Below are positions 1-54,659 of a stretch of 64,000 bases of DNA, in pieces; the first letter of the stretch is position 1; the number at the start of each line of letters is the position of its first letter. Under the pieces are notes generated by a model. It worked only from the letters and a program-made list of their open reading frames with translations, did not search any database and had not been told where the DNA came from. The DNA comes from Promethearchaeota archaeon (GTDB lineage: Archaea; Asgardarchaeota; Lokiarchaeia; Sigyniarchaeales; SOKP01): NCBI GenBank assembly GCA_019058445.1, contig JAHPZA010000010.1:448001-512000 (forward strand), read 5' to 3'. The position numbers were made by a program, and so were the translations under genes.

Positions 1-501
1 ATCAAAAAAGATAGTGACAAAAATATTGATAAATATAAAGAAATAATTTTTATTGGTTATCGAATTCCACGAATAATTTATAGCTTTACGTATGATAATG
101 AAAATACATATATTGATAATACATATTTTATAACAAGAAAAAAGCCTACATCTTTTTCTTTAAAATATGTTATTGCAGTTTTGAATTCGGAATTAATGAG
201 ATATTATATTGATCATGTAGGTAAAAAAAAGGATTTTGAAATTGAAATAGGGGCTAATTTTATTAATAGTTTGCCTTTAATTAATAAAAGGGGATCTTTA
301 ACTAAGGAAGATTTGAGCAGAATTGAAGAACTTGAATTATTAATTTCAAAAATCATAAAATTTGAGCAAAGTAACAAAAATATTGATGAATTAATTGAAA
401 GATTAAATAATCATGTATACAATTTATATCGAATTACAGGAGAAGAGCAGAAATTAATAAAAACCTATCTAAATAAGATTCATTCAATATTATATAAATA
501 A
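1..501 (+). CDS. C-terminal part of a type IIG/Eco57I/TaqI-like restriction-modification methyltransferase (specificity domain), truncated by window start
   Basis: Frame +1 is open from base 1 (…FTYDNENTYIDNTYFI…LKYVIAVLNSELMRYY…LPLI…LNNHVYNLYRITGEEQKLI), resembling the TaqI_C-like tail of such enzymes. Confidence 0.7.
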   Translation: MKKDSDKNIDKYKEIIFIGYRIPRIIYSFTYDNENTYIDNTYFITRKKPTSFSLKYVIAVLNSELMRYYIDHVGKKKDFEIEIGANFINSLPLINKRGSLTKEDLSRIEELELLISKIIKFEQSNKNIDELIERLNNHVYNLYRITGEEQKLIKTYLNKIHSILYK

Positions 502-695
502 AATCGAATTTTTGATCCTTTTATCTCATACCCATAAATATCATATTAGGAATTGGTCTTTTTTTGTTCAGATAATAACGCTATCTAAATGAATAATTCA
601 TCAGTCTCTTAATTAATTAATTTTATTAATCTAATTAAAAATCTAACACTAAATATAAATATAAGATTTCTTGAAGCTTAAATTTTAAGGAATTC

Positions 696-1922
696 TTGAT
701 TTTAATGATGAACAATGTCAAAATGGAAAAGAAAACCTACACAACATCGATGCTCATAAAAGATATTAAAAATGAAATCACAAAATTAATTTCTTTAAAA
801 AATCTATACAATGGAATACTATCAAATGAAAAATTAAGCGTAATTTTAGGTCAATCAAAAACTCATGTAGAGACTATTAAGAGATCAGTAAAATTAAATC
901 CAAAATATCAAATTGCAAATTATTTCATTGAGGGCTATAAAACAAATTTACAAAATCAATTCGGTAATAAAAGTAAGGAAGTAATAGAATATATTAATAA
1001 ATATCAGAATTTAAATAAGCTTAAATGGAAGAATATGGATAACAATGTTTTAAAATATCATCCTAATTTAAAATTGGATTATTTTAAATCAATTGATTCC
1101 AAAGAAAAAGCTTATTGGTTAGGATGGATATTTGCTGAAGGTTATTTTTCTTATGATTCTAAAAATAATTCAATAGTATTTGGAGTAGAAATTAGTAGAA
1201 ATGATATAATTCTAATAGAAAGATTTACGCATGATATTGGATATAATCTTGAACATAAGTATAAAAGATCTGAAAGCAATACAATTGCTATTTATACAAG
1301 AGGTAAGAAATTTGTCCAAAATTTAATAGATCAATTCACGACTAATTTAAAACTAAAAAAGCCTGATGTTATAGGAAACCAAAAATCAAAAGGAATAATT
1401 TTACCTGAATTTGGCAATCGAGAACTGAATTTAGCCTTCCTTCTTGGATTTTATGATGGAGATGGGATTCAAGGCGAAACAGCAATTACTTGTGGAAGTA
1501 AAAAGTTTTTGGAGGGGATAAAGAAAAAATATAATTTAGTCCATCAAATAAGATATTATAAATCGAAATCAATATTGAATGATAGATTAATTGAAGGTTC
1601 AGGTTGGCGATTGAGTTTAGGTGCAAAGTTATTCAATGAAATGATGTATAATTATAGGAGAAGTTTACCTCGAAAGCGAAAATTATTCGAATTAAAAGAG
1701 GAGAAGGCAATTAGATTAGCCAATTATGCAATAAGCCGAAAAAAATTTAAGTTTACTAAATTGCAATTAGAAAAATTAGTATGGGAAATGCCATTGAATA
1801 AAATTGCAGAACTACATAATATTCAGTTTAAGATTCAAATATCAGAATCCCTAATTGGTAAATATTGTAAAAAGTGGAATATTCAAAAGCCAAATCGAGG
1901 ATATTGGAGAACAGTAAAATAA
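696..1922 (+). CDS. Free-standing double-motif LAGLIDADG homing-endonuclease-like protein with C-terminal HTH-like domain
   Basis: Motifs AYWLGWIFAEG and AFLLGFYDGDG; C-terminal KLVWEMPLNKIAE…CKKWNIQKPNRGYW. Confidence 0.8.
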   Translation: MILMMNNVKMEKKTYTTSMLIKDIKNEITKLISLKNLYNGILSNEKLSVILGQSKTHVETIKRSVKLNPKYQIANYFIEGYKTNLQNQFGNKSKEVIEYINKYQNLNKLKWKNMDNNVLKYHPNLKLDYFKSIDSKEKAYWLGWIFAEGYFSYDSKNNSIVFGVEISRNDIILIERFTHDIGYNLEHKYKRSESNTIAIYTRGKKFVQNLIDQFTTNLKLKKPDVIGNQKSKGIILPEFGNRELNLAFLLGFYDGDGIQGETAITCGSKKFLEGIKKKYNLVHQIRYYKSKSILNDRLIEGSGWRLSLGAKLFNEMMYNYRRSLPRKRKLFELKEEKAIRLANYAISRKKFKFTKLQLEKLVWEMPLNKIAELHNIQFKIQISESLIGKYCKKWNIQKPNRGYWRTVK

Positions 1923-2013
1923 ATTAATTAAAATTTATTAAAAATGATTGATCTTCTTTTTTAACCGAGATTGATTTCTTTTGTAAAGTTAGTTTTTAAT
2001 TATAAGATAATCT

Positions 2014-2265
2014 TGGAATGATATCTATTCTTATCAAACAAGAACGAGATCAAAGGAATACTTTGGATATCCCACTTAAAAACCAATAGAACTTCTTGAA
2101 CGAATAGTATTAGCCTCTTCAAATGAAAGAGATATTGTTGCAGATTTTTTTTGTGGAACAGGAACTACACTGCTGGCAGCAAAAAAACATAATAGAATTT
2201 GGATTGGAACTGATAATAATCCTAATGCTATTGATCTATGTCGAAAAAGACTTGGATTATCTTGA
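2014..2265 (+). pseudogene. Fragment of a beta-class N6-adenine/N4-cytosine DNA methyltransferase
   Basis: Frame +1 reads WNDI…[49 protein letters not shown]; TAA at 2077-2079 replaces Q of YPTQKP; N-terminal half absent. Confidence 0.85.
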
Positions 2266-7463: not shown

Positions 7464-9356
7464 CTATTCTATTATCCCTATGGATCTTAACTGAGCTTTT
7501 AGAATTCTGCTTTGGGATAAATAATAAGCTGAGTTTTCACTATTTTTTACCATAAATTTAAAAAAATCACTCATTAAGAGATTCCATTGGATTGATCGAT
7601 GTATTCCAGGAATAGTTTTTTTTGAGAGGAGTTTTTCAGTTGTTTGAAGGTAAAATAGTGCTTTTTTTGTGTTTTTTCGATAATGAATATAAAACTCTGA
7701 TAATTCAAGTAATAAATCGACAATAAGATCTTGATATTTTATTTCACCTAAATTAATCCCTGAGAAAACTAAATTTAATATTTTTAGAGCTTGAGAGTAT
7801 TTCTTCTTATTTTTGTAATATCTTGCGCGAAACAAATGATATCTTAACTTAACCTTCGTGGAAGAGGTATTTCCTATAAAATAGGCCCTTTTTAAATTAT
7901 TTTTCCCCTCCACCGTGCTATCTTGCTCCAGATTAATTAATCCAAGATAGAGAAGAGCCATTCCTAAGTAATCTTCTTTATTAATCTCGTCTAGAATGAG
8001 TTTCTCATCCTCCAAAGATTTGACAGTTAAATTAAAATGAAGTAGCGCATTTGGAAAATCTTTATTTTTGAAATATATTTTACCCAATTTGTAGTGAATT
8101 TGAATTATGAATTCTACCGGAACATCTCCAGATTTTGAAACTTGTTCGGCATTTTGTAAATAATTTAGAGCGATATTAGTTTGATTAAGTAAGGACGCAA
8201 TTTTTGTCAACTTCAATAATATAGAGACCACGATTTTCTTTTGTTTATGCTTATTAAAGATTTTTAATGCTTCTTCCAGAAGCGCAGAAGCTTCTTCGAA
8301 TTTATAATTTTGGAGTAATTCTTGTACTTCTATTAAATAATTTGAAGACTCTATAACTTCGAAATCAGTTGGCGGGGTATTGAGAAGATCGTAATGGAGC
8401 GGGTATAGTTCCTTTGAAATAAGAGTTTCATAATGTAATGATGAGAAGGGAAAGTTATTTTCATCTTCTTCAAAATCTTCATAAGTTAGTTCTTTTTCAG
8501 GTCTAAATTGCACAAAATCACCATAATTAAATTCTCCGAGTTTTAAAATTTCGATCATAGAATTTAGAAGAAGACGAGTGAATTTAATCCAATGTTCTAT
8601 ATATATCTCTAATTTGAAATTTAGATTCTCTCTGTATAATTCTAAAAGAATATATGGAGTATAAGTGTCAAAAATAGATCGTACATAAAACTTATTGAAT
8701 TCTAATTCTTTGAAATATGAGAAAAAACCTTTCTCAAGGATAAAAAATTCGTCATAAGGCTCATCCTCATTAGAAAAAAATAACGTTTCAGGAGTTCTAA
8801 TTTTAGGTATTCCTTTTTTTAGTTCCCAGGGTTGTTTAAAGGTAGGTTTTAGTCCTAGATTTCTAATTAAATCTATAAGCGTCTTTAAAAAATCGGTTTC
8901 AAGTTCCATAAACTGATCTCTTTTATTCATTAATGAAATTCTAATTCGATTTAACCATGCTCGTTCATTTTCGTTTTTAATTATTTCAGGCATTAGCAAA
9001 TTTAATAAATCCACTATTTTTGTTTTTTCTTTTTCAGTTATGAGCCAGTTATGTTCTATAGAAACTTGATCAGATAAATCTTTCAACATCTTCACCAGAT
9101 AAATTATAGTTTTATAAGCTTTTTGGTCTAAATTCCATAATTTGAATGCAATTGAAAGCCGAAAGTGCGCAACTTCAAAGGGGATATTTAATTTTAAAGG
9201 TAGAAAGACAGGAATTTTAATAGTAAATACAACTAATTTATTTTTTCGGATACTATACCTAAAATAATTCTCAATATAACCATGTATCTTCCAGCCATGT
9301 TGTTCAATTACCTGTCTTAACCTATCAATCTCGTTGGAAGATAATGGTATGGACAT
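7464..9356 (-). CDS. TPR-repeat-containing protein
   Basis: C-terminal helical repeats (HYKLGKIYF…ALLHF, LYLGLINL). Confidence 0.7.
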   Translation of the reverse strand: MSIPLSSNEIDRLRQVIEQHGWKIHGYIENYFRYSIRKNKLVVFTIKIPVFLPLKLNIPFEVAHFRLSIAFKLWNLDQKAYKTIIYLVKMLKDLSDQVSIEHNWLITEKEKTKIVDLLNLLMPEIIKNENERAWLNRIRISLMNKRDQFMELETDFLKTLIDLIRNLGLKPTFKQPWELKKGIPKIRTPETLFFSNEDEPYDEFFILEKGFFSYFKELEFNKFYVRSIFDTYTPYILLELYRENLNFKLEIYIEHWIKFTRLLLNSMIEILKLGEFNYGDFVQFRPEKELTYEDFEEDENNFPFSSLHYETLISKELYPLHYDLLNTPPTDFEVIESSNYLIEVQELLQNYKFEEASALLEEALKIFNKHKQKKIVVSILLKLTKIASLLNQTNIALNYLQNAEQVSKSGDVPVEFIIQIHYKLGKIYFKNKDFPNALLHFNLTVKSLEDEKLILDEINKEDYLGMALLYLGLINLEQDSTVEGKNNLKRAYFIGNTSSTKVKLRYHLFRARYYKNKKKYSQALKILNLVFSGINLGEIKYQDLIVDLLLELSEFYIHYRKNTKKALFYLQTTEKLLSKKTIPGIHRSIQWNLLMSDFFKFMVKNSENSAYYLSQSRILKAQLRSIGIIE

Positions 9357-43603: not shown

Positions 43604-44224
43604 ATGGCACAACAAATTATGGTTCCAGGTGCGTGTGGAGTAGCAATAAAGTGTAAAGATGGAGTTGTTCTTGGAAATGATCGAAGAGCGACTTGGGGGT
43701 ATACTGTTACGAATAAATCTACAAGAAAGGTATTTAAAATAACAGACCACATAGGACTCACAGCATACGGATTAATTGGGGACTTTCAGTTATTAGTTAA
43801 AATTTTAAGAGCTCAAGCGAATCTATATGAATTAGATGCAGGGGAAAGAATTTCCACTAAGAGTATGGGAAAATTGGTTTCTAATTACCTCTACTCCAGA
43901 AAAATGTACCCCTTATATACAAACTTAGTTATCGCTGGAATGGAAATAGATGGTATCCCTTCCCTATATACTTTGGATGCCATAGGTTCTTTAATGCCTG
44001 ATGATTATGGCACTGCCGGAACCGGGATGCTATTATCAATTGGAATTTTAGAAGCGGAATATAAGCCTGATATAACTGTTGCGGAGGGTGAAAAATTGGT
44101 GGAAAAGACAATCAGAAATTCAATAACGAGGGATGCGATGAGCGGAAATGGTATAGACATTTTGACTATTACTAAAGATGGTGCCAAAGAAAAGTATATC
44201 GATATTAACGAATTAGGAGAATAA
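43604..44224 (+). CDS. psmB: Proteasome beta subunit lacking the catalytic Thr1
   Basis: DGVVLGNDRRAT, KVFKI, GLIGD, RDAMSGNG; PG-ACG in place of G-TTT. Confidence 0.92.
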   Translation: MAQQIMVPGACGVAIKCKDGVVLGNDRRATWGYTVTNKSTRKVFKITDHIGLTAYGLIGDFQLLVKILRAQANLYELDAGERISTKSMGKLVSNYLYSRKMYPLYTNLVIAGMEIDGIPSLYTLDAIGSLMPDDYGTAGTGMLLSIGILEAEYKPDITVAEGEKLVEKTIRNSITRDAMSGNGIDILTITKDGAKEKYIDINELGE

Positions 44225-44283: not shown

Positions 44284-46371
44284 TTGAATGGTGCTTTTAA
44301 TTTGAGATTAATTAATAACAATTTTAACGATATTGAAGAAATAAACGGATTTTCGAAAGAAGAATTAATTGATATTAAAAGAAAACTAACAAAATTAAAC
44401 TTAGATAAAGCGGATCAAACAGAAATTGAAGGATATCTCTCTGAGAAATTTTCAAGTGAAATAATTGAGTTTTATTCTAATTATCTGAATGAAATAAAAA
44501 CCTTTATTTTTGAAAATCTATTATCGACAACGGATTCTCAAAATAGAATAAATTTTAATCACTTTCCTCTAAAATCTGGAATTAAAAATGAGATTAAAAA
44601 AATATATAATAATTTATTGAATTTAAAGGTAAATGCTCAAAATACGAAGAGATTTTTAAAGAATAGTGCTTTCCTTGATGAGTTGTTAATAACGATCCAA
44701 GATATCATGAAAGAATATCAGGATTTAACTTCTCAATTAAATGTTCCAGAAAATAGAGTTACGGATATTTATGATAATTATGCCTATATCTGGATTGAAA
44801 TTAATAAATTAAAAAATCAATACTTTAAAATCAATAACTTGACAGAAGATTTAACAAATTGGGATGAGTTCCAAGGGTTTTATGAATGTATTAGAAATAA
44901 TATCATCGAATCTACTAAAAAAAAAGAGCGCAAGAAAAAAAATTTCATCATAACTACCCATTTTAATGATATTTATTCATATTTCAGCAAGTTAAAAGGA
45001 GAAAATCCCGATATCTATACAGATTTAATCGCTTTCTTATACAATATAAATCTAATTGAGGAGTTTAAAGAAAAAATAGAGGATCTTGATGAATATGTAA
45101 ATATTCTTGATAGAAAGGAAATTAAAAATAGAATTAAATCTTTAATGAATCCAATAATTAAAAAGTTAATTGAGGATAAAATAAAAGGAACTTTAAACGA
45201 AATTATTGAATTAGATAAAACTTCCAGATTAGGAGATCAGAAAAAAGACATAAACATAAAGAGGGTTTTAGAACAGAAAATTGGTACGTATTTACCTCAA
45301 ATAATTGATTATTATTTAAAAGGATTAGAAAATAAGTATCAAGCTGCTATTAGTGATTTAAAGGGATATGATGAATTTAAAAATGTGGCAAAATTTTATT
45401 CTGAAAAAATAGATATTCTCAATTCTCAAGTTGAGGAAATAGAAAATTATTTTGCTAATTACACTTTAATTTTAAAACCTTATGAGGATATCATAAATAA
45501 ACATAAGAAAACTCTTTCGAATATAACTTCTGAAATTGAAAGAAGGAAAAATGAATATTTATTTTACCTCAAAACTATAAGAAAGGAAAGATTGAGGGAT
45601 AATATAAGAACATTTATTTTTGAGAAAATAACAGAAGTTAATACTTTAATGAGTAAATATCAAGATGAAACTTCACTGATTGTAAGGGAAGAATTTCCTC
45701 AGCTAAAAAAAATGCAAAATATTCTTAGTGAATACAAAGTAAATATTCAAAAAATAAAAGATGAAGTATATCAAAAAATAGATTCTTTTAAAGAAAAAGA
45801 CATTGATATCTATCAAATTATTAAGCAATGGGAGGATAATTTTACACTTAAAAAACAGCAATTAAGTTTTCTCCTGAGTCTGTTAATAAATAAATTGTTT
45901 AAAAGTTTTAAGGATATGATTGAAGAAGAAAAATTGTTATATGAGCACATTACTGATATTACTAATCAAAACGAGAATTATGATAATCTTCCCTTAAATT
46001 TCGCTATATCAAATCTTTTAGTTGACAAATTAACTGAAGATGAATTAGATGAAAGAATTAACGAGATTCACTCAAAAATTGAAAACCTCAATAAAGAAAT
46101 AGAACTTTACAGAGCAGAACTCTCCAATTTAAAAAGAACTTTAGCAAATAAGGTAAAGATCAGAGAGGGAATAACTAGTGATGATATCCAATGCGGTGTC
46201 TGCCGAAAAAAGTTTGATTTTTCGAAAGATAAAATAATAAAATGTCCGTTTTGCGGTGCTGTATTTCATTATTTATGCGTTGCGTCATGGCTCAGTAAAC
46301 ACAACGCTTGCCCTTCATGTCAGAATACTTTTCTTGATCCAAATGCAGGTATTTATTCTGATCAAGAATAA
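44284..46371 (+). CDS. Coiled-coil protein with C-terminal RING finger, putative E3 ligase
   Basis: C-x2-C-x13-C-x2-C-x4-H-x2-C-x3-W-x6-C-x2-C. Confidence 0.8.
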   Translation: MNGAFNLRLINNNFNDIEEINGFSKEELIDIKRKLTKLNLDKADQTEIEGYLSEKFSSEIIEFYSNYLNEIKTFIFENLLSTTDSQNRINFNHFPLKSGIKNEIKKIYNNLLNLKVNAQNTKRFLKNSAFLDELLITIQDIMKEYQDLTSQLNVPENRVTDIYDNYAYIWIEINKLKNQYFKINNLTEDLTNWDEFQGFYECIRNNIIESTKKKERKKKNFIITTHFNDIYSYFSKLKGENPDIYTDLIAFLYNINLIEEFKEKIEDLDEYVNILDRKEIKNRIKSLMNPIIKKLIEDKIKGTLNEIIELDKTSRLGDQKKDINIKRVLEQKIGTYLPQIIDYYLKGLENKYQAAISDLKGYDEFKNVAKFYSEKIDILNSQVEEIENYFANYTLILKPYEDIINKHKKTLSNITSEIERRKNEYLFYLKTIRKERLRDNIRTFIFEKITEVNTLMSKYQDETSLIVREEFPQLKKMQNILSEYKVNIQKIKDEVYQKIDSFKEKDIDIYQIIKQWEDNFTLKKQQLSFLLSLLINKLFKSFKDMIEEEKLLYEHITDITNQNENYDNLPLNFAISNLLVDKLTEDELDERINEIHSKIENLNKEIELYRAELSNLKRTLANKVKIREGITSDDIQCGVCRKKFDFSKDKIIKCPFCGAVFHYLCVASWLSKHNACPSCQNTFLDPNAGIYSDQE

Positions 46372-47588: not shown

Positions 47589-47797
47589 TTGTTTTTATTC
47601 CTTAAAGATATATTTATTAATATAAATTCTAATTTATTATATCAAGGTACTCGATATATTTATAAAAGATACAGTCAAAACTAAATAATTATAATAAATG
47701 ACTTTATTTATATAGTCGAGCTCTTATTATTTATATACTAGTATAAATATAAATAGGTATTTTATAGCTAAAATAAAGAAAAAAAAGGTTGATTATT

Positions 47798-48139
47798 ATG
47801 GGTTTTGATGATGAATTTGATGAGGATTTAGGAGAACCTGAGGAAAAGACCCCTATGAAGTCTAAAACTCCATCGACTCCCCCAGCAGGGGGAAAGAAGA
47901 TGAATCTCTACTTTACATCTACAATTGGACCTGGTGAGAAGCGACAGAAATTATTAGTTGATGACGGTAATACCGTCGGTGCTGTTAAACAGACAATTGG
48001 CAATATTTTTGGATTAGATCCAGCAGATTTTCATTTATCTTCGGGAGGAGTTACAATGGATGATAGCTCTCCTTTAAGCTCATATAATGTAAATGATGGC
48101 GATGAAGTACTTTTAATACCAGCAAGTACTGCTGGTTAG
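47798..48139 (+). CDS. Ubiquitin-like modifier with disordered N-tail and C-terminal Ala-Gly
   Basis: Beta-grasp pattern TVGAVKQTI…FHLSSGG…LSSYNVNDGDEVLLIPASTAG*; directly upstream of E1. Confidence 0.88.
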   Translation: MGFDDEFDEDLGEPEEKTPMKSKTPSTPPAGGKKMNLYFTSTIGPGEKRQKLLVDDGNTVGAVKQTIGNIFGLDPADFHLSSGGVTMDDSSPLSSYNVNDGDEVLLIPASTAG

Positions 48140-48256: not shown

Positions 48257-49489
48257 GTGGAAGATTTGGAAGAGGATTCTAATTTTTTTAGTAAAGAATT
48301 AACACCAGACGAGAGAGATCTGTATGATCGTCAGTTTAGATTGGAAGGATGGGATCAAAAACTAATTAAAAATTCACGAGTATTGATAGCGGGGGTAGGA
48401 GGATTAGGTTGTGAAATTGCTAAGAATTTGGCTATGTTGGGAGTGGGTCATCTTGACTTAGTAGATTTAGATATAATAGAACATTCGAATTTGAATCGAC
48501 AAATCCTCTTTACTGAGGCAAAAATGGGTGAGGCAAAAGCTGTAGTTGCCGCGAGAAAATTAACACAAATTAATCCAAACATTACAATTAAAGGTTATCA
48601 CAGTTCATTAGAAAGGCTCGATCCTGCGATTTATAAAGCAGCTGATGTTATTATCGGAGGTTTAGATTCGATGAATGCGAGACTTAATTTAAATGCTCAG
48701 TGTGTACGATTTAAAAAACCGCTTATCGATGGAGGTGTTGCGGGGTATAATGGACATATCTATACAGTTTACCCTTACGAAAACGCCTGTTATGAATGTG
48801 ATCCGCTTCCAGTTGCAGATATGGATGAAATGGCCGCATGCACTGTAGTGGGTGTCCCTAGAAAACGGGTTCACTGTATTTTTAAGGCAAATATGCTTTT
48901 CAAGGATGAAAATGATAGAGATCCTGATCCAAAAAATATAGAAGATGTAAATTTAATTCAAAATGAAGCAAACAAATTTGCTCAGAAACATAATTTTTTA
49001 CCGCTATTTTCAAAAGCAGATATTATTAAAATCATAGATAGACATGATCCTGGGATAATTACGATAAATTCAATTATATCTGCACTTCAATCGCATGAAA
49101 CCATCAAGGTTTTGCATTGGTTGAAAGGAAATAACGCGTTGGGAGAGCCTATCAAGTCCTATATTATTTTTAATGGAATGACCATGAAATTTTTCCCTAT
49201 TGAAAAGAAAAGAAATTTACAATGTCTCCAATGTGGTGACGAGGTACGGAGGGTAGTAATTGAAATTAATCGCAATACCAGTTGTGAGAAAATTGTAAAT
49301 AAGTTAGAAAAGATGGGATTTAATAAAAATCCGGAAATGGAGCCAACTTTAACAATAATGGACTTCAATAATATAAATATAATAGATACTGATCTTACGC
49401 CTATTGAAAATGATTTAAGAGATTTAGAATTGATAACAGCCGTAGGTTTTGATGGGGGAGAAATTTTTATAACTCTAAAAATCGTATAA
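48257..49489 (+). CDS. Ubiquitin-like activating enzyme E1 (UBA3-like monomeric)
   Basis: YDRQ, GVGGLG, DLDIIEHSNLNRQ, CYEC, probable catalytic ACTVVGVPR…HC, CLQC. Confidence 0.93.
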   Translation: MEDLEEDSNFFSKELTPDERDLYDRQFRLEGWDQKLIKNSRVLIAGVGGLGCEIAKNLAMLGVGHLDLVDLDIIEHSNLNRQILFTEAKMGEAKAVVAARKLTQINPNITIKGYHSSLERLDPAIYKAADVIIGGLDSMNARLNLNAQCVRFKKPLIDGGVAGYNGHIYTVYPYENACYECDPLPVADMDEMAACTVVGVPRKRVHCIFKANMLFKDENDRDPDPKNIEDVNLIQNEANKFAQKHNFLPLFSKADIIKIIDRHDPGIITINSIISALQSHETIKVLHWLKGNNALGEPIKSYIIFNGMTMKFFPIEKKRNLQCLQCGDEVRRVVIEINRNTSCEKIVNKLEKMGFNKNPEMEPTLTIMDFNNINIIDTDLTPIENDLRDLELITAVGFDGGEIFITLKIV

Positions 49490-49591: not shown

Positions 49592-50119
49592 ATGAGTTTA
49601 AGAAGTAGTCGAGTTTCTCAGGATTTTGCTTCGCTTAAAAAGTTACTTAAGGATGGAACCATCGCTCAACTAAAACCTTTTAATCCAAAACAGAAAAGTA
49701 TTGATCATTTAGCTGTCCTGCTTAAAGGTCCTAAGGGGACCGCTTATCAAGGAGGAGTATTTAAACTGGAAATCAAATATCCCCCTACGTATCCCAGACA
49801 TCCACCATTCGTTCGCTTACATACTCCTATTTGGCATCCTAATTTTTGGCCAAAACCTTCTGAGTATCCTGGTCAGCGAAATATTTGTCTAGCGCTCGTA
49901 GATCCGAGTTTAGTAGGGAAAAAAGGAGGTTGGAGCCCATCAAAAACAATTGTCACTGTAATACAAGCAATTACAGCAATGTTTAATACGCGAGGTTTAT
50001 TCATTAATCCTACTGATGTATTTAACAAAAAAGCAGCTCTCGAAATGATGAATGATCGCAAAAATTTTGAGAAAAAGGTAAAGCATTTAGTTAAGAAGTA
50101 TGCTAATCAAAAATGGTGA
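49592..50119 (+). CDS. Ubiquitin-conjugating enzyme E2
   Basis: GPKGTAYQGGVF, YPRHPP, WHPN…NICL, WSPS. Confidence 0.95.
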   Translation: MSLRSSRVSQDFASLKKLLKDGTIAQLKPFNPKQKSIDHLAVLLKGPKGTAYQGGVFKLEIKYPPTYPRHPPFVRLHTPIWHPNFWPKPSEYPGQRNICLALVDPSLVGKKGGWSPSKTIVTVIQAITAMFNTRGLFINPTDVFNKKAALEMMNDRKNFEKKVKHLVKKYANQKW

Positions 50120-50940
50120 ATAGAAAAATGGAAAATGAAAAATCTGATGAAGATGCCATTAAAGAGGCCATAAAAAAGAGAATTAAAAATAAAATTAAGA
50201 AAGAACTATTGGAAGAAATCTATAATGAATTAAAGTTGGAGGAAGATGAATTAGCCGATGAGATTTCTTCATCACTTAGTAAAAATACAAAGAAAATTCC
50301 TACAGAATTACCCCTTTCCACAGAGATAATAAATGATATTAAAACTGAAGAAGTTGCGCCAAAAGATTTAGAAGATGATAAAACAGTAACTATATCAGTG
50401 AAGGCTATTCTCAAAATTGCCAGCCATGCACTGAAATATGCAAATCCAAATATTTCAAAAGATAAATGGGTTGAAGTCATTGGACTTTTGGCAGGTAAGC
50501 AGTATAATTACGGGCCTAAACTCCATATTGAAGATGCTTACCCTATGGGGCACGGCACTGCTGTTTATGCGGAAATTAAAGATTATAAAAATTTTGTAAG
50601 AGCGTTCAATGATATTAAGAAAAAGAAATTATTTATCTGTGGATGGTATCACTCTCATCCGTCATACGGAACATGGATGAGTGATGAAGATATTGGGACT
50701 CAAGCACGATATCAGAAGTTATGGGATAAAGCAATCGCACTTGTGGTTGATCCTTATCAAATTGATGGGACTTCATTAGGTTTTGATATTTTCAGAGCTA
50801 ATTTAAACACGAAAAAGTGGTTTTCTATACCATTTAGCGTCGAGGGTTCGCTTGATGTAAGATTATTACCTGAAATTTTAAATTTTATGAATCCTATAAT
50901 CGAGGGAAAGGCAGCATATCTCGAATATGATGAAGATTGA
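50113..50940 (+). CDS. JAMM/MPN+ isopeptidase (Rpn11/CSN5-like)
   Basis: EVIGLLAG, GWYHSHPSYGTWMSDED, VVDP. Confidence 0.93.
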   Translation: MVNRKMENEKSDEDAIKEAIKKRIKNKIKKELLEEIYNELKLEEDELADEISSSLSKNTKKIPTELPLSTEIINDIKTEEVAPKDLEDDKTVTISVKAILKIASHALKYANPNISKDKWVEVIGLLAGKQYNYGPKLHIEDAYPMGHGTAVYAEIKDYKNFVRAFNDIKKKKLFICGWYHSHPSYGTWMSDEDIGTQARYQKLWDKAIALVVDPYQIDGTSLGFDIFRANLNTKKWFSIPFSVEGSLDVRLLPEILNFMNPIIEGKAAYLEYDED

Positions 50941-50976
50941 TTTTAAAGTAGCAACTAGGAATTTGGTGAGCATTTT

Positions 50977-52155
50977 ATCGCGGTTAAAAAACAGAATCTT
51001 ATCATCTTATTAATTTTTTTTGGTATCGGTGTATTTCACGGTGTATTAATTTCAAATTCATTAAATAATTTTTTTTCTTGGTTATTGGTTGGATGTTGGA
51101 TTCTCTTTACAATTAAATTTTTTGAAAAAAGAAAAGAATATAATGAATATAATTCACAAAAAAATACATCATTCTTTCTCTTAGGTCCTTTAAGTGTGGG
51201 CCTATTTTATAACTTATGGGGTTATTTTACAGGATTATGGGGTGAAAATCTTTTCGAAAATACATTACCATTTTTATATATAAGCCTCTGGACTCTTATA
51301 TTTGCTTTTCCATACTTAATATACGGTTTATATACAATTCGAGCATGTTATACAAAATTTCATGTAGTATATCTCATAAAAACTAGATCTCTAAGTGCCC
51401 GCAAATTCGGAACATTTTATACGCTTTTACTTCTATTTGGAATTTTATTTTATATTGTATTTTTCAATATTATTCTGAATTATTTTTATATCATTGTAGA
51501 GCAAGTTTATTTCTATTTTGATATAATGCTCGTGGTAATATTTTTAACCTTAATTTATATATTCATAAGACACGGAATCTTTGGTTCAGCACGCTCTATG
51601 CCTGAGATTTCTCAAGATTATATAAACCGCCGAAGACAGCGCTTAAGAACAATGACCACTACTCCAGTTAGGGCTGCTCCAAGTAGACCTAAAACTACAA
51701 GAACCACATCACGACCAGCTCCAAGTAGACCTAAAACTACAAGAACCACATCACGACCAGCTTCAAATAGACCTAAAACTACAAAGACCGTTTCACGACC
51801 AGCTCCAAGTAAGCCAAAAACTACAAGAACAACAGCTCAAAAACCAAAAGTCGCTGCAAGTGCTGTCTTTGAGAAATATAAACCAAAAGCAGGAATTCTT
51901 TCATTAGAGGACTTTAAGTGTATATTTTGCTTTCAACTTCCTAAACTTCCTGCTGATACTCATCGTGGAATTGTTTTATGTCCAAATTGTAAACACCCAG
52001 CTCATGCGGATGAATTTAAAGAATGGACTCATGATTCTCCTCTCTGTTCTCGGTGTGATGCCCCAATTCCACCAAGTTTTAGGAGAAATCCCGTGATTAT
52101 CTCTGTCAAACAGTATGTTGATGTAATTAACGAGTATAAAAGAAGAAAGACATAG
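50977..52155 (+). CDS. Polytopic membrane protein with repeat linker and C-terminal RING-like domain (probable ATC start)
   Basis: About 6 TM segments; C-x2-C-x16-C-x2-C-x4-H-x2-E-x3-W-x6-C-x2-C; GGTGAG RBS at 50965. Confidence 0.75.
   Translation: MAVKKQNLIILLIFFGIGVFHGVLISNSLNNFFSWLLVGCWILFTIKFFEKRKEYNEYNSQKNTSFFLLGPLSVGLFYNLWGYFTGLWGENLFENTLPFLYISLWTLIFAFPYLIYGLYTIRACYTKFHVVYLIKTRSLSARKFGTFYTLLLLFGILFYIVFFNIILNYFYIIVEQVYFYFDIMLVVIFLTLIYIFIRHGIFGSARSMPEISQDYINRRRQRLRTMTTTPVRAAPSRPKTTRTTSRPAPSRPKTTRTTSRPASNRPKTTKTVSRPAPSKPKTTRTTAQKPKVAASAVFEKYKPKAGILSLEDFKCIFCFQLPKLPADTHRGIVLCPNCKHPAHADEFKEWTHDSPLCSRCDAPIPPSFRRNPVIISVKQYVDVINEYKRRKT
51676..51832 (+). repeat. 42-bp coding tandem repeat (APSRPKTTRTTSRP), ~3.7 copies
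   Basis: gctccaagtagacctaaaactacaagaaccacatcacgacca repeated. Confidence 0.9.
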
Positions 52156-52185
52156 TATAACAGTATTTTTTTTTATGTTTTATAA

Positions 52186-52911
52186 TCATTTAAGTCTTAA
52201 TTTATTTAGATTTTTACGGGCTTTCGAATTATTTGGGTCAATTCTTAAGGCTTTTTTATAACAATTGATTGCTTCTTCTAAAAAATTTAATTTTTCCAGT
52301 GCATATCCTTTATTATTCCAAGCCATGGAATTCTCTGGTTCTATTTTTATAGTATTTTCAAAGCATTTCACGGTTTGTTCATATTGACTTAAATCTGCAT
52401 GTAATAGTCCTTTTTCAAATAGAGCATGTGAATTGTCAGGATTAATTTTTAAAGCTTCATTGTAAAAAAAAATCATCGTTTTCTGCCAGTCAGAATCTTC
52501 ATTTGTGCAATCCCACATCAGAACTTCAGCTGGATGTTTATCTTTCCACCATTCAACATAATGCTTACAAGAACAAAATAATTTGATTTCCTTAGCATCT
52601 TTTATCTCTATACCATTTTCAAAGTCAGTATCACAAATAAAGCAAGTTCCATCTGTACCTACTAGAGGCATGATATTATTATGCCAAGGTAACCGATAAT
52701 CCCCTTCAGAATAAATTCCATAAATGTACATAGGTCCTTGAGCGATTCTACACCTTGTGTACCAATTGGCGCAATAAGTATATCCAGAATTTATAATATG
52801 TACGTTTCTTATGGGGCAATAATTTTCAATCCAGGGTTCTTTACGTTCATCTTTATCTAATTTTCGTTTAAAAATGCAGGTTGCACAGCAATCTGAACCA
52901 CCATTTGGCAT
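52186..52911 (-). CDS. Cys-rich N-terminal domain plus TPR repeats
   Basis: MPNGGSDCCATC…; AWNNKGYAL…AINCYKKALRIDP. Confidence 0.8.
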   Translation of the reverse strand: MPNGGSDCCATCIFKRKLDKDERKEPWIENYCPIRNVHIINSGYTYCANWYTRCRIAQGPMYIYGIYSEGDYRLPWHNNIMPLVGTDGTCFICDTDFENGIEIKDAKEIKLFCSCKHYVEWWKDKHPAEVLMWDCTNEDSDWQKTMIFFYNEALKINPDNSHALFEKGLLHADLSQYEQTVKCFENTIKIEPENSMAWNNKGYALEKLNFLEEAINCYKKALRIDPNNSKARKNLNKLRLK

Positions 52912-52956
52912 TGAATTAACCTTCTTGTACTGCAATTTTAAATTTGAAGTATTAAA

Positions 52957-53768: not shown

Positions 53769-54659
53769 ATGTCCGAAGAATCTCTTGATAATGATGATAA
53801 TTCCAAGTCGGAATTCGTATCGAGACTATACAATTGTCCGAAGTGCAGATTGATGCATACAGTAAAGCTCCCTAAAGATATCGCCCAAAATAAACCTGTT
53901 TTTCCTTTTCCATACGTATTTTTACATTCTTCTGAGGAAGGACTTGATGATATCCTTACTGTTCTTTATATTGATGTAGAACTTCATATACGTGCTGTTG
54001 AAGTTATGGAAGTTGACGAAACCAATATTTTTTCTGAAGATCTTACTAAACAAATTACTGAAAAGTTAATGGATAAGATTGTGAGCTTAGAAGAAGAAAA
54101 TTTACAGTTAAAAGACCTAATTCGCAAAATGGAGTTAGTTAAAGTAAGTGGATTAGAGGGAAAGAATCCAAGAGTTATGAGCATTCCGAAATTGGAATAT
54201 GAATCTGAGATAAAGGAAAAACCAATCACTTTGGAGCCTCAAATTCCAAAACTAAAGGAGATAAATGAAAAAAAGCCATTATTTGATTTACAGGAAATAC
54301 CCATGCCTGAGATTGAGTCTAAAGAACCCATGCCTGAGATTGAGTCTAAAGAACCCATACCCGAGATTAGATCTAAACAACCCATCCTAGAGTCTGAAGA
54401 CTTTTTCGATATAATTAAAGTGTATATTACATCTACGGTTGGACCAGGAGAAAAAAAACAGGATTTACGGGTAAAATTAAGTAATAAAGTCATTGATATT
54501 AAAGATACAATCGGAAAGATCTTTGGTTTAACACCCTCAAATTTCCATCTTTCCTCGGGAGGAATTACATTTGATGAACAGCTGCTCCTAAAGGATTATT
54601 ATATTGAAGAAGGAGACGAAATTCTTATTATTCCTTCAAGCACAGCAGGATTTTTTTAA
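53769..54659 (+). CDS. Zinc-ribbon domain, coiled coil, repeat linker and C-terminal ubiquitin-like domain ending AG-FF
   Basis: CPKC…H; C-terminal domain paralogous to the Ubl at 47798 (TSTVGPGEKKQ, FHLSSGG, GDEILIIPSSTAGFF). Confidence 0.85.
   Translation: MSEESLDNDDNSKSEFVSRLYNCPKCRLMHTVKLPKDIAQNKPVFPFPYVFLHSSEEGLDDILTVLYIDVELHIRAVEVMEVDETNIFSEDLTKQITEKLMDKIVSLEEENLQLKDLIRKMELVKVSGLEGKNPRVMSIPKLEYESEIKEKPITLEPQIPKLKEINEKKPLFDLQEIPMPEIESKEPMPEIESKEPIPEIRSKQPILESEDFFDIIKVYITSTVGPGEKKQDLRVKLSNKVIDIKDTIGKIFGLTPSNFHLSSGGITFDEQLLLKDYYIEEGDEILIIPSSTAGFF
54300..54380 (+). repeat. 27-bp coding tandem repeat (PMPEIESKE), 3 copies
   Basis: cccatgcctgagattgagtctaaagaa twice plus one degenerate copy. 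Confidence 0.9.

Follow-up and report, generated by a model that had tools for sequence, protein, structure and literature searches.

A multi-pass membrane protein with a glutamate-bearing RING variant closes a ubiquitin-like operon in an Asgard archaeon: a candidate membrane-anchored ligase

The stretch analysed here, hereafter the window, is 64,000 nucleotides long and covers positions 448,001 to 512,000 of contig JAHPZA010000010.1 (G000:C10:448001-512000 in our numbering) in the 4.6-Mb, ~29% GC genome of an Asgard archaeon labelled Promethearchaeota (GCA_019058445.1). It contains a ubiquitin-like (Ubl) operon whose last gene, here called TM-RING, encodes a polytopic protein with a predicted transmembrane (TM) domain, a basic linker and a C-terminal variant of the RING domain. 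In our reading, TM-RING is a RING-type ubiquitin(-like) ligase anchored in the membrane, which serves the core Asgard Ubl-E1-E2-JAB operon as its cognate E3 and works with the E2 of that operon; we put the probability of this reading at roughly 0.65. It rests on the gene itself, the topology pattern of its product, the RING/U-box fold, the homology to other RINGs, the invariance of the ligands and of a tryptophan, and the operon linkage; from these we infer zinc binding by a glutamate, binding and activation of the E2, and the nature of the substrates.

An earlier note on this DNA, made from its letters and open reading frames (ORFs) only, had described the ORF at 50977-52155, about six TM helices, a basic Thr/Pro repeat linker, a RING with the ligand order of the RING at 44284 but with Glu at ligand 6, a retained E2-contacting Trp, and a position closing the Ubl operon. 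All of these descriptions stood up to the analyses below, and the H-x2-E ligand proved to be conserved. The features of the gene (coordinates within the window) are as follows.

50965..50969, plus strand: GGTGA Shine-Dalgarno-like motif, 7 nt before the proposed start (direct sequence reading)
50977..52155, plus strand: TM-RING gene, stop included, for a 392-residue polytopic membrane RING protein; last gene of the operon
50977..50979, plus strand: proposed non-canonical ATC start codon, aligned with the Met/start of more than 90 homologues
50977..51579, plus strand: predicted six-helix TM domain, residues 1-201, an orphan fold (AlphaFold2 model)
51613..51654, plus strand: predicted basic cytoplasmic juxtamembrane helix, residues 213-226, with a DY-x-x-RRR motif (AlphaFold2 model)
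51655..51867, plus strand: basic linker rich in Thr, Pro, Arg, Lys and Ser (composition, alignment gaps)
51676..51834, plus strand: 42-nt tandem repeat in 3.8 copies, encoding a 14-residue repeat of the linker (Tandem Repeats Finder score 241, 84% matches)
51868..52152, plus strand: C-terminal RING/U-box-fold domain with flanking helices, residues 298-392 (AlphaFold2, structure search, hhalign)
51919..52056, plus strand: RING core, C315-C360 (codons read from the sequence)
52166..52174, plus strand: run of nine T (T9), 11 nt past the stop (direct sequence reading)

The C-terminal domain, of ~85 residues, carries the ligase reading. Its ligand pattern is C-x2-C-x16-C-x2-C-x4-H-x2-E-x10-C-x2-C, with the ligands, numbered from 50977, at C315, C318, C335, C338, H343, E346, C357 and C360; the codon for E346 is GAA at 52012-52014, and Trp350, four residues past this Glu, lies on the central helix. 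Among 250 distinct proteins of the family, all eight ligand positions and the Trp vary hardly or not at all: 249 have Glu at ligand 6 and one has Ala, the Trp is present in 250 of 250, and the preceding Asp is kept in 243. The extra His two residues past the fourth Cys is not a ligand, since that position may be H, Y, F or R. The C-I-F-C motif, which places a hydrophobic residue after Cys1, is as invariant as the Trp, so that the residues by which RINGs contact their E2 are conserved. Since seven of the eight positions are Cys or His and ligand 6 is Glu, the domain is a RING variant and not a canonical RING finger. The sole Ala at ligand 6 occurs in P0128, a public metagenome protein of 418 residues (H-A-D-A-F), which could be either a natural test of the Glu or a decaying copy.

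The AlphaFold2 (AF2) model of residues 298-392 had a predicted local distance difference test score (pLDDT) of 92.4. When it was searched with Foldseek, the top matches were all RING/U-box E3s (best E 2e-3, probability 1.0), and re-alignment of these candidates with VIA gave Z scores from 8.2 (root-mean-square deviation, rmsd, 3.9; 75 aligned) down to 6.1 across model residues 9-95, with 50 of 50 rows being RING/U-box proteins. An unbiased VIA search of 48,161 representative PDB chains again returned RING/U-box proteins in all of its top 50 rows, with Z from 8.0 (rmsd 4.1, 75 aligned) to 5.0. The modelled domain thus falls unambiguously into the RING/U-box fold class. At the profile level, hhalign aligned the family with the RING of the 44284 ORF (probability 89%, E 2.2e-6, 53 columns) and brought all ligands into register, the His and Trp of one lining up with those of the other and Glu with Cys6; the two domains share the register C-x2-C...C-x2-C-x4-H-x2-[C/E]-x3-W...C-x2-C, whereas the protein at 44284-46371 has no TM domain, has Cys as ligand 6 and scores above the Pfam zf-RING_2 cutoff. 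Because the structural matches are RING/U-box and the homology to the 44284 RING is in register, the C-terminal domain of TM-RING is a member of the RING superfamily whose ligand 6 became Glu. Two other classes of zinc finger were considered and dropped: the PHD finger (C4HC3, x4 before His) is absent from the structural match lists and the Trp stands at the RING position, and the weak match to a UBZ ubiquitin-binding finger spans just 12 residues around the last C-x2-C.

The gene model has one unusual feature, its start. The reading frame of TM-RING runs uninterrupted from 50959 to its stop at 52153-52155, and no opposite-strand ORF of 60 or more residues lies over the gene. Of the codons ATG, GTG and TTG, the earliest in the frame is a TTG at 51085. 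In over 90 homologues the protein begins with M-x-K-K 36 codons before it, precisely at 50977, where this genome has ATC and other relatives have ATG, GTG or TTG. The combination of ATC with GGTGA also occurs in two related genomes, L006 (about 7880-7895) and L011 (about 260-276), and the GGTGA motif precedes the start in L004, L005 and L007 as well. Compared pairwise in three genomes, the 36 codons between ATC and TTG show synonymous/non-synonymous counts of 9/4, 11/7 and 9/3, and just 3.4% of shuffles of this stretch were free of stops. The start codon of TM-RING is probably the ATC at 50977, where we infer initiation to take place, giving a product of 392 residues. A start at TTG 51085, which would yield a topologically possible product of 356 residues and four TM helices, was rejected as the main model because the 36 upstream codons are open, match the first TM helix of the homologues and evolve mostly synonymously. 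Gene callers shorten TM-RING to 354-356 residues in this clade. In two genomes of the same family the match to TM-RING (G071:C3:60474-61592 and G246:C182:17336-18472) holds one in-frame TAA each, which may reflect a pseudogene or an assembly error.

The N-terminal half of the protein is predicted to be a membrane domain. Residues 1-227 were modelled with AF2 on 50 homologues; the model reached a pLDDT of 90.5 and a predicted template-modelling score (pTM) of 0.83, and placed helices at residues 2-25, 29-55, 64-81, 104-126, 141-170 and 183-201, with a cytoplasmic beta-hairpin between TM4 and TM5 and the basic helix 213-226 after TM6. A hydropathy scan was consistent with six TM helices, TM3 being the least hydrophobic. 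When the Lys and Arg residues of positions 1-232 were assigned to the AF2 segments, all 20 fell on the cytoplasmic side (at the N-terminus, in the TM2-3 and TM4-5 loops, at the cytoplasmic helix ends and in the segment after TM6) and none in the three outside loops, which hold acidic residues. From this strict positive-inside pattern, we predict that both termini are inside and that the RING lies in the cytoplasm. Conservation of the TM domain is highest in TM2-TM4 and the TM2-3 loop, with the motif E-x-N-S-P-x-N-T-x-F-F and an invariant W, P and N, and in the juxtamembrane helix the Y and R columns of the homologue alignment are almost invariant.

The TM domain is an orphan, with no relative by sequence or fold in the databases searched. 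Its profile, run against 1.84 billion representative proteins, gave 54 matches, every one from this family; the PDB sequence profile gave none at E up to 10, and Pfam, run on 50 members, only scattered matches with E above 0.004. Foldseek against the PDB returned nothing useful (best E 4.3), the ESM Atlas returned by shape only unrelated bacterial proteins with TM-scores of at most 0.45 and by features no usable match, and in the wide structural search with VIA the best row, a soluble helical domain of Plasmodium MSP1 (Z 7.3), was noise. No function can therefore be assigned from the TM domain. Among its top 50 structural rows, nearly the sole membrane proteins were three entries for Hrd1 from human and yeast (9uav_B, Z 6.4 with 111 aligned; 9z0e_C, Z 5.6 with 142; 6vjz_B, Z 5.3 with 142), these scores lying inside the stated noise for helical bundles (below about 13) and under those of soluble helical repeats.

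Between the membrane domain and the RING lies the linker, in which residues 227-300 have the composition T18 P12 R10 A9 K9 S8. Across the family it varies in length and sequence and keeps its basic Ser/Thr/Pro character, and it is presumably disordered.

The second line of evidence is the genomic setting. The plus strand of the window carries, in this order, genes for a proteasome beta subunit, a coiled-coil RING protein, the Ubl, E1, E2, the JAB protease and TM-RING, with one minus-strand coiled-coil gene between the coiled-coil RING and the Ubl.

43604-44224, plus strand: proteasome beta subunit gene, upstream of the operon
44284-46371, plus strand: 695-residue coiled-coil protein with a C-terminal RING (Pfam zf-RING_2, 32.6 bits against a cutoff of 27.3)
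47789..48139, plus strand: ubiquitin-like modifier (Ubl), first gene of the operon (PF00240 ubiquitin, E 5.9e-7, over the gathering score)
48257..49489, plus strand: E1-like activating enzyme (PF00899 ThiF, E 1.3e-60)
49592..50119, plus strand: E2 conjugating enzyme, presumed to partner the RING (PF00179 UQ_con, E 1e-24)
50113..50940, plus strand: JAB/MPN (Rpn11-like) isopeptidase (PF01398 JAB, E 1.2e-13)

The JAB gene overlaps the E2 gene by 7 nt, the Ubl has an Ala-Gly end, and the Ubl gene keeps its place at the head of the operon in relatives. The T9 run past the TM-RING stop is likely an archaeal oligo-T terminator, a role that we take from general knowledge of archaeal termination, and the next gene (52186-52935) lies on the minus strand and is convergent; together these indicate that TM-RING closes the operon.

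The order Ubl-E1-E2-JAB-TM-RING is kept in 11 of the 12 loci examined across Asgard families: in all six closer loci, which lie on long contigs with three sets of flanking genes and have homologues 41-86% identical, and in five of six from distant families, the sixth being permuted yet linked. In that permuted operon (L016; G166:C179:11000-25000), E2-JAB-TM-RING stands ~2 kb from Ubl-E1 on one strand. Among the distant loci the identity of TM-RING is 20-32% in four, in L020 the RING part alone aligned (64%), and in L016 nothing aligned at the blastp cutoff. Of the 301 Asgard genomes searched by profile, 126 gave a match to the family, which is near-universal in some Asgard families (58/68, 24/28 and 18/21 genomes) and was found in 0 of 76 genomes of another. 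The public homologues come from metagenome-assembled genomes labelled Promethearchaeota, Lokiarchaeota, Hodarchaeota, Hermodarchaeota, Odinarchaeota and Thorarchaeota, and their records read 'hypothetical protein' or 'conserved membrane protein of unknown function'. Only the close clade has the coiled-coil RING and the upstream proteasome gene; a RING of the 44284 type is absent from loci L004, L005, L007 and L008, which keep TM-RING. In most loci TM-RING is thus the sole RING of the ubiquitin cluster. In three distant loci (L015 10432-11585, L017 9670-10574 and L020 10280-13829), two Ubl genes stand ahead of E1, and in L020 one Ubl domain ends a 585-residue ORF that looks like a Ubl fusion protein.

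A second mini-locus occurs in the same genome (L002; G000:C6:373064-376774). It consists of a winged helix-turn-helix (wHTH) regulator (208-879, minus strand), a Ubl gene (1129-1491, plus strand) whose product has a STAG end followed by two extra residues, and, adjoining it, a paralogue of TM-RING (1570-2238, plus strand). This paralogue, of 222 residues, shares the S/T/R-rich region and the Glu-type RING with TM-RING and, like it, has a Ubl neighbour, but it has no TM domain. What had looked like a second copy of the gene with internal stops is this intact TM-less paralogue, the stops lying in the non-coding DNA upstream of it. About 40 clusters of soluble Glu-type RING forms of 190-230 residues are present in public data, all labelled 'hypothetical'. 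A 223-residue wHTH gene lies divergently upstream of the ubiquitin operon, on the minus strand, in L004 (5917-6588), L005 (5926-6597) and L007 (3923-4594), and could be a regulator of the ubiquitin genes; in the genome studied here, the 223-residue wHTH gene stands in a like divergent position beside the second Ubl locus and not beside the main operon, the resemblance being one of size and position.

Taken together, we propose that TM-RING could work as follows. Its six TM helices would fix it in the cytoplasmic membrane with both termini inside, and the ~70-100-residue basic tether would let the RING range over the cytoplasm close to the membrane. A cross-brace in the RING would coordinate two zinc ions, with Cys315, Cys318, His343 and Glu346 in site 1 and Cys335, Cys338, Cys357 and Cys360 in site 2. 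The RING would then dock the E2~Ubl thioester of the operon through the residues after Cys1 and the Trp350 surface, and promote the passing of the Ubl to lysines on proteins that lie in the membrane or associate with it. Selection of these substrates may fall to the TM2-TM4 region, which is conserved, or to its cytoplasmic loops, and the adjoining JAB protease may reverse or process the modification.

The presumed partner is well conserved: the E2 of the operon is 77-97% identical over seven loci, with an invariant HPN motif and Cys99 column, and it keeps the loop-4 Tyr-Pro and loop-7 Pro-Ser pairs, which in our reading correspond to the residues probed in the Caldiarchaeum E2 (PMC5654768). 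We docked the two by running ESMFold2 on the E2, the RING and two zinc ions, with three controls. The pair scored 0.59, against 0.02 for the best of the controls, with 100% of contacts agreeing between runs and a partner pLDDT of at least 88; this is graded as weak support. Of the solved complexes 58 of 80 reached the mark, and of the mismatched pairs 2 of 110 did.

Several observations weigh against the ligase reading. The docking score falls in a range (up to 0.60) that holds just seven of the 80 solved complexes yet both of the mismatched pairs that passed, and solved RING-E2 complexes are abundant, so that the pass may reflect memorised structures; the docking hence suggests likeness rather than binding. 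Ligand 6 is Glu in place of Cys or His, and even Ala in one member, which leaves zinc binding at site 1 putative, and the residue after the last Cys is Asp, Asn or Ser, where many RINGs carry an Arg or Lys linchpin. As absolute values, structural Z scores of 6-8 are middling, and the case for the fold rests on the uniformity of the match list. No Pfam RING model reaches its gathering score on the family: zf-RING_16 matched 57 of 58 members below threshold (best E 1.2e-4; 14.3-14.8 bits for the protein of the window against a cutoff of 27.4), zf-RING_2 matched 21 of 58 (best 0.014) and Prok-RING_1 49 of 58. The PDB sequence profile gave only E 0.12-0.8, to an IFT144 zinc finger, RNF165 and the HRD1 RING. 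With no Pfam RING over threshold and such weak PDB matches, the family has remained unannotated. By sequence, the RING comes closest in PDB and Pfam to the C-terminal zinc fingers of two IFT-A subunits, IFT144/WDR19 and IFT121, and to zf-RING_16; it shares a C-P-x-C-x-[FY]-P-A stretch with them, and all of these matches are sub-threshold (E 0.12; best 1e-4 among members).

TM-RING could instead be a non-catalytic membrane scaffold or receptor, in which a weakened RING does not activate E2~Ubl but docks the E2, the Ubl, the JAB protease or modified proteins, much as the RING-like C-terminal fingers of IFT-A and GATOR2 do. The closest sequence neighbours being structural zinc fingers (IFT144, and below threshold Zf_2nd_IFT121 and zf-RING_16), the Glu at ligand 6 and the lack of a basic residue at the linchpin position all fit such a role, and in this clade the Pfam-positive RING encoded nearby at 44284 could be the active E3. 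However, that RING is missing from most loci with TM-RING, where TM-RING is the only RING available, the E2-contacting Trp of active RINGs is invariant in the family, and docking to the E2 has some, if weak, support. We therefore regard a scaffold as rather unlikely.

It is also conceivable that the TM domain is the functional unit, for instance a transporter, a channel or a lipid-handling protein, and that the RING mainly modifies its own protein and so controls its abundance or sorting. The strongest conservation of the TM domain, a polar motif in the TM2-TM3 cytoplasmic loop and in TM3-TM4, does suggest a specific binding or transport site, and the Lys-rich linker offers many acceptor sites. 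Against this stand the lack of likeness to any transporter family in sequence or fold, the strict linkage to E1, E2 and JAB, which suggests a role in the core pathway, and the L002 paralogue, which has the same linker and RING beside a second Ubl; as this protein lacks a TM domain, the RING module works independently of it. We consider self-regulation decidedly unlikely.

A true counterpart of Hrd1 in endoplasmic-reticulum-associated degradation (ERAD), with the TM bundle as a retrotranslocation or substrate-insertion channel and the RING marking extracted proteins for the proteasome, is very improbable, since the Hrd1 rows, the succession of TM bundle, linker and C-terminal RING, and the proteasome beta gene upstream in this clade are outweighed by Z scores within helical-bundle noise, by Foldseek, sequence and Pfam searches that all lack a match, by the eight TM helices and the RING-H2 with Cys at ligand 6 of Hrd1, and by an operon in which no Der1/derlin, Hrd3/SEL1L or Usa1-like partner is seen, a genome-wide search not having been made.

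The possible ERAD-like ligase of the earlier note thus survives in part. The RING/U-box fold, the RING homology, the six TM helices and the operon argue for a ligase, but no sequence, Pfam or Foldseek match ties the TM domain to Hrd1, Doa10/MARCH or Tul1, and the label 'ERAD-like' exceeds the evidence. What is supported is that TM-RING works like a membrane-tethered RING ligase, and not that it belongs to any eukaryotic membrane-ligase family. With eukaryotic polytopic RING ligases (Hrd1/SYVN1, RNF-type, Pex2/10/12 and Doa10/MARCH) it shares the combination of a multi-pass TM domain with a cytoplasmic RING of the same fold, and the HRD1 and Pex RINGs are among the structural or sequence neighbours of its RING; its TM domain, in contrast, is without detectable homology to theirs in PDB sequence, Pfam and Foldseek searches. 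To our knowledge, all of these ligases have Cys or His at ligand 6. The RING-CH of MARCH and Doa10 is a C4HC3 domain with C-x-C and x7 before the His and lies ahead of the TM segments, whereas the RING of TM-RING is C-terminal with a C-x2-C-x4-H spacing, and is accordingly not a RING-CH. Known RING variants, such as Rbx1 with its Asp ligand, the plant RING-D and the U-box, show that a carboxylate ligand, or even the loss of zinc sites, is compatible with the fold and with E3 activity; we know of no variant among them with a Glu fixed at ligand 6 throughout a family.

The closest characterised system is the Ub/E1/E2/srfp/Rpn11 operon of Caldiarchaeum subterraneum, in which a small soluble RING-H2 protein, srfp, is a proven E3 (PMC5654768), a precedent that supports the reading of TM-RING as a membrane E3. 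In both archaea a RING gene stands beside genes for ubiquitin, E1, E2 and a JAB/Rpn11 protease, and both RINGs carry a conserved Trp on their helix, follow Cys1 with a hydrophobic residue and have an additional Cys in the C3/H4 region. In srfp, Ile30 and Trp58, the equivalents of this hydrophobic residue and of the Trp, are required for activity, and the domain is of class C3H2C3 with an Arg linchpin, R69 (PMC5654768). While srfp is small, soluble and of RING-H2 type with this Arg linchpin, TM-RING has 392 residues, six predicted TM helices, a long basic tether of ~75 residues, a C4-H-E-C2 ligand set and no basic linchpin.

In the literature searched, whose coverage was limited and gives no proof of novelty, no polytopic membrane RING in an archaeal ubiquitin operon is described. 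A survey of Asgard ubiquitin systems identified E3s by their InterPro domains (PMC9192718), an approach that would miss this family, and the soluble RING E3s of Asgard archaea have been studied separately (bioRxiv 2023.07.25.550441). As no Pfam model scores over threshold, surveys based on domains cannot see TM-RING. The eukaryotic ubiquitin system is regarded as having grown from archaeal ubiquitin operons, whose E3, as described to date, is a small soluble RING protein (PMC5654768). Many Asgard lineages instead have a multi-pass membrane protein as the E3 candidate of the operon. If TM-RING is active, ubiquitylation took place at the membrane before eukaryogenesis, the proposed link between ubiquitin and the ESCRT (endosomal sorting) complexes in Asgard archaea (PMC9192718) gains a concrete enzyme, and the range of RING variants widens to include a fixed Glu ligand. 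A bolder view, doubtful but worth stating, is that the ancestral E3 of the Asgard operon was a polytopic membrane ligase and that tagging was centred on the membrane, directing membrane proteins to ESCRT-type sorting or to extraction with proteasomal degradation; the system would then be a prokaryotic forerunner of ERAD and multivesicular-body sorting with a novel six-TM substrate-recognition fold and a Glu zinc ligand. For biochemistry, TM-RING offers a well-defined, expressible soluble fragment.

Downstream of the operon, the convergent minus-strand gene at 52186-52935 encodes a 249-residue product with a Cys-rich N-terminal half and C-terminal tetratricopeptide repeats (TPR_1, E 2e-18). It is not kept beside the operon in relatives, which have LysE or GCHY-1 genes there instead. 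Further on, the plus-strand gene at 53769-54659 encodes a protein of 296 residues with a second ubiquitin-family domain of the window at its C-terminus (PF00240, E 6.8e-5, slightly under the cutoff), and an orthologue of this protein occupies the same relative position in L006 (9956-10843).

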